Positions 1 through 619 of a stretch of 619 bases of DNA are shown piece by piece. The translations under genes were made by a program, and so were the position numbers. Each line of letters opens with the position of its first letter. Position 1 is the first letter of the stretch. Under the pieces are notes generated by a model. It was not told where the DNA came from. It saw only the letters and a list, made by a program, of their open reading frames with translations, and did no database searches. Origin of the DNA: a phage. The stretch lies in the sequence record DQ006827.1; one strand, 5' to 3'.

Positions 1-14
1 TTACTGGAGGCAAC
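1..14 (+). other. 3' end of the 5' untranslated leader of an ssRNA phage genome (partial; the 5'-terminal part of the leader lies outside the window)
   Basis: Sequence immediately upstream of the A2 start codon. Only 4 in-frame codons precede the ATG, so the leader identity depends on the start-codon call. Other frames stop at TAG 29-31 and TAA 64-66. Confidence 0.6.
6..10 (+). promoter_or_regulatory. Shine-Dalgarno ribosome-binding site for A2
   Basis: GGAGG at 6-10, followed by a 4-nt spacer (CAAC, 11-14) and ATG at 15-17. The spacer is slightly shorter than typical but workable. Qbeta has a purine-rich SD-like element a few nt upstream of its A2 start in the analogous position (from memory). 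Confidence 0.55.
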
Positions 15-619
15 ATGCCACGTTTACCTAGGGGACTTCGATTCGGAGCGAATATGGAGGTCTTAAACGACTTCCAGGAACTCTGGTATCCAGAGTCCCA
101 CATCGATTCCGATATGATCTTCCCTTTGTATACCTTCAAAGGTAACATGGGTGGTTCGTTTTTCGATTCCTACGGCACAAATAATATTGTCCGTCAGGTC
201 CGGAAGACGCCACACCGTGCTACAGTTCCTATAGCCTCTTCTGGCTTAAGGCCCTGTACCTCTGTATGGTATGACCCAACCAGCCTGCTTTTCAGAATTC
301 CTGAAATGAGGGCTGAGTGGGACAATGGCATGGGTGACACTGGAGATATTGTCTATAAAGACTTTCTCTTCAGTGCGCCGGCACCTAAGGAGTTCGATTT
401 CTCCAATTCCTTAGCGCCACGCTACAGTAATGCCTTTTCCGCCTTTAACGCCAAGTATGGCGTCATTATCGGAGAAGGGCACGAAACACTTAAGTATTTC
501 GCGCTATTACTTCGCAGACTACATAAAGCAGTCCGTGCCGTTCGGCACGGAGATTTACGTGGTCTCCGGAGGATCCTTGACTCTTACCATAAGGGTCATT
601 GGAAACCTGCTACTGCTGG
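15..619 (+). CDS. A2: Maturation protein A2 (maturation/lysis protein) of a Qbeta-like ssRNA phage; start codon present, 3' end truncated by the window edge (last complete codon 615-617, then GG of a Gly codon)
   Basis: Seen in sequence: the frame is open from position 3 to 617 with no stop, while the other two + frames and all three - frames carry multiple stops. Translation from ATG 15 is MPRLPRGLRFGANMEVLNDFQELWYPESHIDSDMIFPLYTFKGNMGGSFFDSYGTNNIVRQVRKTPHRATVPIASSGLRPCTSVWYDPTSLLFRIPEMRAEWDNGMGDTGDIVYKDFLFSAPAPKEFDFSNSLAPRYSNAFSAFNAKYGVIIGEGHETLKYFALLLRRLHKAVRAVRHGDLRGLRRILDSYHKGHWKPATA (201 aa). Established knowledge, from memory: Qbeta A2 begins MPKLPRGLRFGADNEILNDFQELW and contains RQVRRTPHRVTVPIASSGLRP, APKEFDFSNSLVPRY, AFSAFNAKYG, LLLRRL, GDLRALRR and KWKPATAG in the same order and spacing. 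Arg codon usage is mixed and includes AGG, AGA, CGG and CGA. Confidence 0.9.
   Translation, partial: MPRLPRGLRFGANMEVLNDFQELWYPESHIDSDMIFPLYTFKGNMGGSFFDSYGTNNIVRQVRKTPHRATVPIASSGLRPCTSVWYDPTSLLFRIPEMRAEWDNGMGDTGDIVYKDFLFSAPAPKEFDFSNSLAPRYSNAFSAFNAKYGVIIGEGHETLKYFALLLRRLHKAVRAVRHGDLRGLRRILDSYHKGHWKPATA
80..96 (+). other. Local RNA hairpin inside the A2 coding sequence (7-bp stem, 3-nt loop)
   Basis: ACTCTGG (80-86) is the exact reverse complement of CCAGAGT (90-96); the loop is TAT (87-89). The equivalent Qbeta segment, as I recall it, can form a similar but shorter stem with a UUU loop. Confidence 0.4.
532..551 (+). other. Local RNA hairpin inside the A2 coding sequence (8-bp perfect stem, 4-nt loop GUUC); not a transcription terminator
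   Basis: TCCGTGCC (532-539) is the exact reverse complement of GGCACGGA (544-551); the loop is GTTC (540-543). No U-tract follows, and an RNA phage genome has no rho-independent terminators. The homologous Qbeta segment (recalled) forms a 7-bp stem at the same codon positions, with two base pairs changed on both sides. Confidence 0.5.

Follow-up and report, generated by a model that had tools for sequence, protein, structure and literature searches.

The 5′ end of an M11-like RNA coliphage genome, with the ribosome-binding site and the N-terminal half of the A2 maturation/lysis gene

The 5′ leader and the A2 reading frame

The window, i.e. the whole stretch of DNA that was analysed, consists of 619 nt of one strand with 48.6% G+C, and all counts given here refer to its full length. 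It opens with the last 14 nt of a 5′ untranslated region (UTR; 1-14, plus strand), which correspond to M11 nt 43-56 in an ungapped alignment of the window to M11 43-661 and MX1 42-660, and which show zero differences from either phage, the first ~42 nt of the genome falling outside the window. A Shine-Dalgarno sequence, GGAGG (6-10, plus strand), can be read directly from this leader and ends 4 nt before an AUG at 15-17; its bases G7-G10 are invariant in 10 out of 10 aligned genogroup III strains.

This AUG starts exactly 201 codons (15-617), which together with 2 nt of codon 202 make up the N-terminal part of the A2 maturation/lysis protein gene (15-619, plus strand), open at the 3′ end of the window. 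The assignment is based on matches to Pfam PF03863 and PHROG 4286, on identity to the M11 and Qbeta proteins, and on dN/dS. Base 15 of the window corresponds to M11 nt 57, the annotated start of the M11 A-protein coding sequence, and through the alignment to M11 the A2 gene is placed first in the genome with its start ~56-61 nt from the 5′ end, as is typical of this lineage. Maturation proteins have a full length of about 400-450 aa, and their C-terminal alpha-region is required for incorporation into the capsid. The remaining features of the genome plan of the genus, i.e. a coat gene with leaky UGA read-through (A1) and the lack of a separate lysis gene, all concern regions downstream of the window.

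In a six-frame reading, frame 3 (bases 3-617) runs through all 205 codons without a stop codon, which confirms the single stop-free frame claimed by a first-pass annotation made from the sequence alone, including the 201 codons counted from the AUG at 15. Each of the other five frames contains 6-15 stops, and when the window was shuffled by mononucleotides 20,000 times, a stop-free plus-strand frame of any kind arose in only three cases. No minus-strand or out-of-frame ORF longer than 50 codons is present in the ORF list of the window. An overlapping small ORF (325-414) was considered as an embedded gene and dismissed as unremarkable.

The 201-aa translation matches the Pfam family PF03863 (Phage_mat-A) at 276 bits (cut-off 25, E = 7e-82), exceeding the gathering threshold, with residues 32-201 aligned to profile positions 16-215 of 446; it also scores 148 bits against PHROG 4286, and a search of the NCBIfam profiles returned no family for it. 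The maturation-protein profile proposed earlier as a check is therefore found, and similarity to ssRNA phage maturation proteins is strong. The encoded 201 residues are a genuine maturation-protein N-terminus, kept under purifying selection. Starting at M11 nt 43 and covering 201 of about 421 A2 residues, it is indeed the 5′ region of a Qbeta-like ssRNA phage with the N-terminal half of A2, as had been proposed.

Placement within the genogroup III coliphages

A megablast search against 50,697 phage records returned three matches, each full-length and ungapped: M11 (AF052431; nt 43-661, 93.4% nucleotide identity), MX1 (AF059242; nt 42-660, 89.8%), and the RefSeq record NC_001890, a copy of MX1 labelled ‘Escherichia phage Qbeta’ (nt 42-660, 89.8%). 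Identity between M11 and MX1 over the same stretch is 88.9%, and GenBank taxonomy places both in Qubevirus durum. With sensitive blastn, the alignment to Qbeta-proper strains is confined to the 3′ 39-46% of the window (73-76% identity), in agreement with the earlier statement that this is not Qbeta itself, and only short pieces are alignable to group IV phages. At the protein level (tblastn), identity is 94.5% to M11 and 90.5% to MX1, then 61-64% to Qbeta, BR12, BZ1, HL4-9, TW18, VK and the Fr phages, and 37-42% to SP, FI, NL95 and other group IV strains. M11 is collinear with the window without gaps over all 619 nt, differing at 41 nt and at 11 of 201 residues, and MX1, a member of the same lineage with the same ungapped collinearity, differs at 63 nt and 19 residues. 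The description of this A2 as divergent is thus appropriate relative to Qbeta proper (62% identity), but not relative to M11.

In an NJ tree (300 bootstraps), the window, M11 and MX1 form a clade with 100% bootstrap support, within which the window groups with M11 at 77% and MX1 is the outgroup to both; the Qbeta-proper strains form their own clade, and group IV falls outside. Quartet-informative nucleotide sites, counted with seven different Qbeta-clade outgroups, number 12-16 for (window, M11), 3-4 for (window, MX1) and 5-7 for (M11, MX1), and a split of 15/3/5 departs from that expected under a star tree (chi-square about 10.8, 2 d.f., p about 0.005, by hand calculation).

We are therefore highly confident that the window is a cDNA, in plus-strand sense, of nt ~43-661 from the genome of a naturally occurring F-specific RNA coliphage of genogroup III (Fiersviridae, Qubevirus durum), a member of the M11/MX1 branch and sister to M11, and that it contains the last part of the 5′ UTR, the ribosome-binding site of A2 and the opening 201 codons of an A2 gene of about 421, the species assignment being based on 619 nt of 5′ UTR and A2 while the replicase criterion lies downstream. 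Judged from these comparisons, it would be the third genotype, alongside M11 and MX1, of their branch of genogroup III. This is a new strain of a well-known kind, with an anatomy that holds no surprises and no new biology.

That there is no closer relative refers to the INPHARED complete genomes and to the IMG/VR and JGI contigs, with GenBank covered to August 2025. The IMG/VR and JGI metagenome contigs contain no M11-like sequence; they yielded one Qbeta-clade contig at 63% amino acid identity, the same in both collections, and one SP-like contig at 44%. A search of 5.8 billion proteins with the 201-aa query returned no match at E <= 1e-10, and because this collection apparently lacks these RNA phages, the empty result has no bearing on novelty.

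The position next to M11 could in principle hide a mosaic produced by RNA recombination between M11-like and MX1-like parents. Indeed, between 311 and 560 there are 12 sites at which the window shares its base with MX1 only and eight at which it shares it with M11 only, as against nine and 35 elsewhere. However, a two-breakpoint maximum chi-square test was not significant (permutation p = 0.26), rate variation and M11-specific changes clustered locally at 311-317 account for the pattern, and sites polarised with Qbeta number three for window plus MX1 versus 15 for window plus M11. We therefore consider a mosaic origin highly unlikely, and retain that of a natural strain sister to M11.

The nature of the differences from M11 bears on a second alternative, namely that the window derives from M11 or MX1 in the laboratory, as a cDNA clone, an engineered construct or a population from experimental evolution. 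The 41 substitutions, unaccompanied by any indel (0), are distributed over codon positions 1, 2 and 3 as 6, 6 and 29, and comprise 33 transitions and eight transversions; they affect 28 codons synonymously and 11 non-synonymously, with dS of 0.25, dN of 0.025 and dN/dS of 0.10 (Nei-Gojobori). M11 alone deviates, the window being identical to MX1, at 21 sites, and the window alone deviates at 15. As dN/dS is 0.10 and most changes are synonymous, we read this pattern as long natural divergence under purifying selection, unlike laboratory evolution or sequencing error. The sequence is written as DNA, and cDNA clones and evolution lines of the Qbeta group do exist (e.g. MH108093-104), yet 41 differences in 619 nt with such values of dS and dN/dS and a 4:1 transition bias are far above what evolution experiments yield, and there is neither vector sequence nor a match to a plasmid record. 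A laboratory derivative consequently deserves very little credence.

The first-pass annotation had left open a group IV-type phage or an uncultured relative, a suggestion which does not survive the comparison with cultured and sequenced genogroup III phages, as the window lies at 93.4% and 89.8% nucleotide identity from M11 and MX1. An allolevivirus of group IV (Qubevirus faecium, SP/FI/NL95-like), or else an uncultured and deeply divergent relative, would be compatible with ~62% amino acid identity to Qbeta proper and with a nucleotide sequence that for the most part cannot be aligned to Qbeta. Moreover, group IV phages (SP, FI, NL95; Qubevirus faecium) belong to the same genus, also have A2 as the first gene, and share with the window the N-terminal MP-LP-GLRFG and the block FSAF..KYG..GEG-ETL-Y. 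However, their A2 proteins are longer (438-450 aa) and have 22-31 additional residues inserted ahead of G-x-W-K, which the window lacks, their identity to the window is 37-42% as against 94.5% for M11, and the window lies inside the M11/MX1 clade with 100% support. Identity, missing insertion and tree all led us to reject group IV membership, and a group IV or deeply divergent origin is extremely unlikely. The earlier reading is thus partly supported, being right in family and gene and wrong in subgroup.

Finally, the idea that a bacterial genome or plasmid harbours this sequence as an integrated or carried DNA copy has only the DNA lettering of the window in its favour and is negligible as an explanation, given the collinearity with RNA phage genomes at their 5′ end, the exceptionally strong RNA folding with covariation (see below), and the fact that the DNA-genome context raised by the first-pass annotation was not found, with no relative in 185,579 GTDB genomes, in PLSDB plasmids (blastn) or in 5,426 complete E. 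coli genomes. The empty DNA searches, the very stable fold and the compensatory pairs also lend indirect support to a single-stranded RNA genome.

Predicted folding of the 5′ domain

Read as RNA, the natural M11-like sequence has a minimum free energy (MFE) of -264 kcal/mol, while shuffles average -182 kcal/mol (SD 10), corresponding to z = -8.2. An RNAalifold consensus of ten strains (the window, M11, MX1 and seven Qbeta-clade strains) contains 152 pairs in 28 helices, with standard pairs in 96.6% of cells and compensatory double changes in 31 of the 152 pairs. Controls in which the 3′ partners were slid by 1-3 columns gave 40-45% of cells paired and 2-7 compensatory pairs, a comparison that is inflated by scoring the consensus structure on the very alignment that predicted it. 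The observed values of pairing and compensation were reached by none of 500 column shuffles. A search of Rfam at permissive thresholds returned no family for the window.

Two predicted long-range helices of this consensus cover the A2 ribosome-binding site (9-20, plus strand), 17-20 being paired with a 3′ arm at 242-245 and 9-11 with one at 251-253 (both within 242-253, plus strand), in all cells of the ten strains. Each helix includes one compensatory pair between the M11 and Qbeta clades (11-251, CG/AU; 20-242, AU/UA). The MFE fold of the window itself also buries 14-20, but with a different partner, and the partner assigned here was chosen because of the covariation. For Qbeta, the relevant paper on translation of the maturation gene from nascent strands is reportedly that of Beekwilder et al. 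1996, J Mol Biol 256:8. The long-range helices predicted here fit translation of A2 from nascent strands only, and the window RNA would then be a folded element that allows this translation while strands are still incompletely folded. For MS2-type phages, the established view is that translation of this gene takes place on nascent strands only, before the 5′ region is finally folded (PMC6071253).

Three further hairpins are predicted, all on the plus strand. The first (385-414) has 13 bp (385-397/402-414) and a 4-nt loop; 96% of its cells are paired and nine of its 13 pairs are invariant, which makes it a conserved element with no compensatory support. The second (433-478) is bipartite (433-441/470-478 and 446-453/458-465), is conserved in the consensus fold, and holds five of the 15 window-specific substitutions: a G-U pair is retained at 437, an A-U pair is lost at 464, and 443, 455 and 467 are unpaired. 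The third (510-571) is long and irregular (510-527/554-571), with an apical 7-bp stem (533-539/544-550) closed by a GUUC tetraloop; 98.6-98.7% of its cells are paired, and compensatory changes occur at 512-569, 536-547 and 539-544. Over the whole consensus, the predicted pairs contain seven of the 15 window-specific substitutions, with pairing kept at 285, 437, 518 and 605 and broken at 158, 205 and 464. For comparative modelling of RNA structure in the 5′ domains of Qbeta-group genomes, the new strain contributes a few more informative substitutions.

The A2 N-terminal region and its proposed function

Against the Qbeta A2 chains of 5VLZ, 5VM7 (the complex with MurA), 7LHD and 5MNT, the translation gives E = 6e-79, and residues 1-201 pair with Qbeta A2 1-200 through a single one-residue indel, the window having one extra residue near position 97. 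The two proteins belong to the same family and have the same domain order, and they share the blocks MP+LPRGLRFGA, TPHR-TVPIASSGLRP, APKEFDFSNSL-PRY and FSAFNAKYG. Identity is 62% overall, distributed as 75% in residues 1-28, 49.5% in 29-121 and 72.5% in 122-201, which bears out the earlier description of a protein collinear with Qbeta A2, with conserved blocks and substituted throughout.

The variable segment of the exposed beta-region (codons 29-121; 99-377, plus strand), delimited by amino acid changes, dN/dS and its 49.5% identity, corresponds approximately to Qbeta A2 residues 30-120. With respect to M11, the amino acid changes are R29H, V30I, T34M, T52S, R64K, S89T, V101E, N115K, N120S, T121A and R156H, so that ten of the 11 fall in residues 29-121, the sole exception being R156H; the chance of at least ten of 11 changes falling in these 93 of 201 residues is about 0.003 (binomial, our own calculation). 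The same segment holds 13 of the 19 differences from MX1, and its dN/dS is 0.20, as compared to 0.02 in residues 122-201.

The latter residues form a conserved segment (codons 122-201; 378-617, plus strand), with 98.8% identity to M11, 96.3% to MX1 and 72.5% to Qbeta, and are the only part of the window that blastn can align to Qbeta proper. Judged from the amino acid sequence, they are probably largely helical, and would represent the start of the alpha-region. An AlphaFold2 single-sequence model of the fragment shows helices in 122-201 but is too poor to count (mean pLDDT 34, pTM 0.27).

The Qbeta protein offers a framework for interpreting these segments. In each virion one coat dimer is replaced by a single A2 molecule, which binds the genomic RNA within the capsid through its alpha-region, exposes its beta-region, and mediates attachment to the F-pilus (PMC12856241). 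MurA in its closed state, loaded with UDP-GlcNAc, is a further target of A2, and this binding blocks the synthesis of peptidoglycan precursors and leads to lysis (PMC10610835). With reference to Cui et al. 2017, PMC12856241 places most of the contacts with MurA in Qbeta A2 residues 30-120 and gives residues 1-180 as the shortest lytic fragment. By the collinearity of residues 1-201 with Qbeta 1-200, the window includes the equivalent of this minimal fragment, and therefore spans the whole region implicated in lysis. Residues 29-121, which approximate the reported MurA-contact segment, are also those that vary most, both relative to Qbeta and among the window, M11 and MX1. To our knowledge, MurA inhibition has been shown experimentally for Qbeta A2 only; the GenBank note on the M11 A-protein, ‘particle maturation and bacterial lysis’, is an annotation and not an experiment.

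By homology with Qbeta, we infer that the A2 of this strain would act both in F-pilus binding and in MurA inhibition. A single copy per virion would bind the side of the F-pilus and accompany the genomic RNA as it enters the cell. Freshly synthesised A2 would also bind MurA via its exposed N-terminal beta-region, and the first committed step of peptidoglycan synthesis would be stopped, so that the growing cell would lyse.

It might be that the beta-region (29-121) of M11-lineage A2 contacts MurA or the F-pilus differently from that of Qbeta A2, because these residues are ~50% identical to Qbeta and are the fastest-evolving even with respect to M11; we regard this as unlikely, if worth keeping in mind.

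Beyond cataloguing, the importance of the new strain is small. The sparsely sampled M11/MX1 branch gains a genotype, which may help primer and probe design and strain typing; genogroup III F-RNA coliphages serve as indicators of faecal pollution. It also adds one more natural A2 variant, whose amino acid changes cluster in the exposed part of the protein that has been linked to contact with MurA and the pilus. Should the contacts of the M11-lineage beta-region indeed differ from those of Qbeta, these phages might be insensitive to the MurA ‘rat’ allele (L138Q) or have a shifted pilus specificity, and the present strain, M11 and MX1 would be a series of naturally occurring alleles with which the specificity of a protein antibiotic could be mapped.

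Predicted RNA structures within the A2 coding region

A 13-bp hairpin at positions 385-414 is near-invariant across genogroup III, and its nucleotide conservation exceeds the needs of the encoded protein. Buried inside it is a perfect Shine-Dalgarno-like motif, UAAGGAG (386-392), for which no start codon lies at a fitting distance on the 3' side in the window.

Further upstream, the consensus fold of the window, M11, MX1 and the seven Qbeta-clade strains includes a predicted helix formed by positions 102-106 and 163-167. Positions 102 and 167 are A and U in the window, in MX1 and in all Qbeta-clade strains, and are G and C in M11 only. 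As read from this alignment, G102 and C167 of M11 are a compensatory double substitution that took place inside one strain, which provides direct support for the predicted helix.

Within a conserved bipartite hairpin spanning positions 433-478, five of the 15 substitutions that only the window carries are grouped in 31 nt (437, 443, 455, 464 and 467). None of the five alters the encoded amino acid; a wobble pair is retained at one site, an A-U pair is lost at another, and the remaining three fall at unpaired positions.

A small reading frame overlapping A2

An AUG-initiated ORF of 29 codons (325-414, + strand, frame 1), coding for MAWVTLEILSIKTFSSVRRHLRSSISPIP, overlaps A2 and is uninterrupted in M11 and MX1 as well as in the window. 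Of the seven Qbeta-clade strains, six have an open form of 27 codons, which starts two codons downstream and shares the terminal UAG of the longer ORF; the seventh, BZ1, has UGG in place of this UAG. Frame 1 contains only six stops in the 206 codons of the window, so that a run of 29 codons is just average for this frame. Moreover, the peptide differs from its M11 counterpart at 4 of 29 positions, and no clear transmembrane stretch could be found along its length. On these grounds we rejected the candidate, which is probably not a gene, judging from its sequence.

Database coverage and record labels

When searched against a collection of 5.8 billion protein clusters (E <= 1e-10), the A2 fragment of the window gave no match, yet dozens of relatives are present in GenBank (Qbeta, M11, MX1, SP and others). 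Fiersviridae maturation proteins are therefore apparently missing from this collection, and an empty search there should not be counted as RNA phage novelty. A Qbeta-clade A2 is also encoded by a metagenome/metatranscriptome contig of 2,890 nt, which is present both in IMG/VR (IMGVR_UViG_3300019216_000421) and in JGI (Ga0179939_1057709), and which is placed with BR12 and VK at only 49-60% bootstrap.

Concerning existing records, NC_001890.1, labelled 'Escherichia phage Qbeta', gave the same match length, coordinates and identities as MX1 (AF059242) in every search, and MX1 shares only ~62% identity with Qbeta proper over the N-terminal half of A2. Both this record and PHROG 4286 call A2 a 'head maturation protease', a misnomer, since to our knowledge A2 is not known as a protease. 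These two labels can mislead automated annotation.
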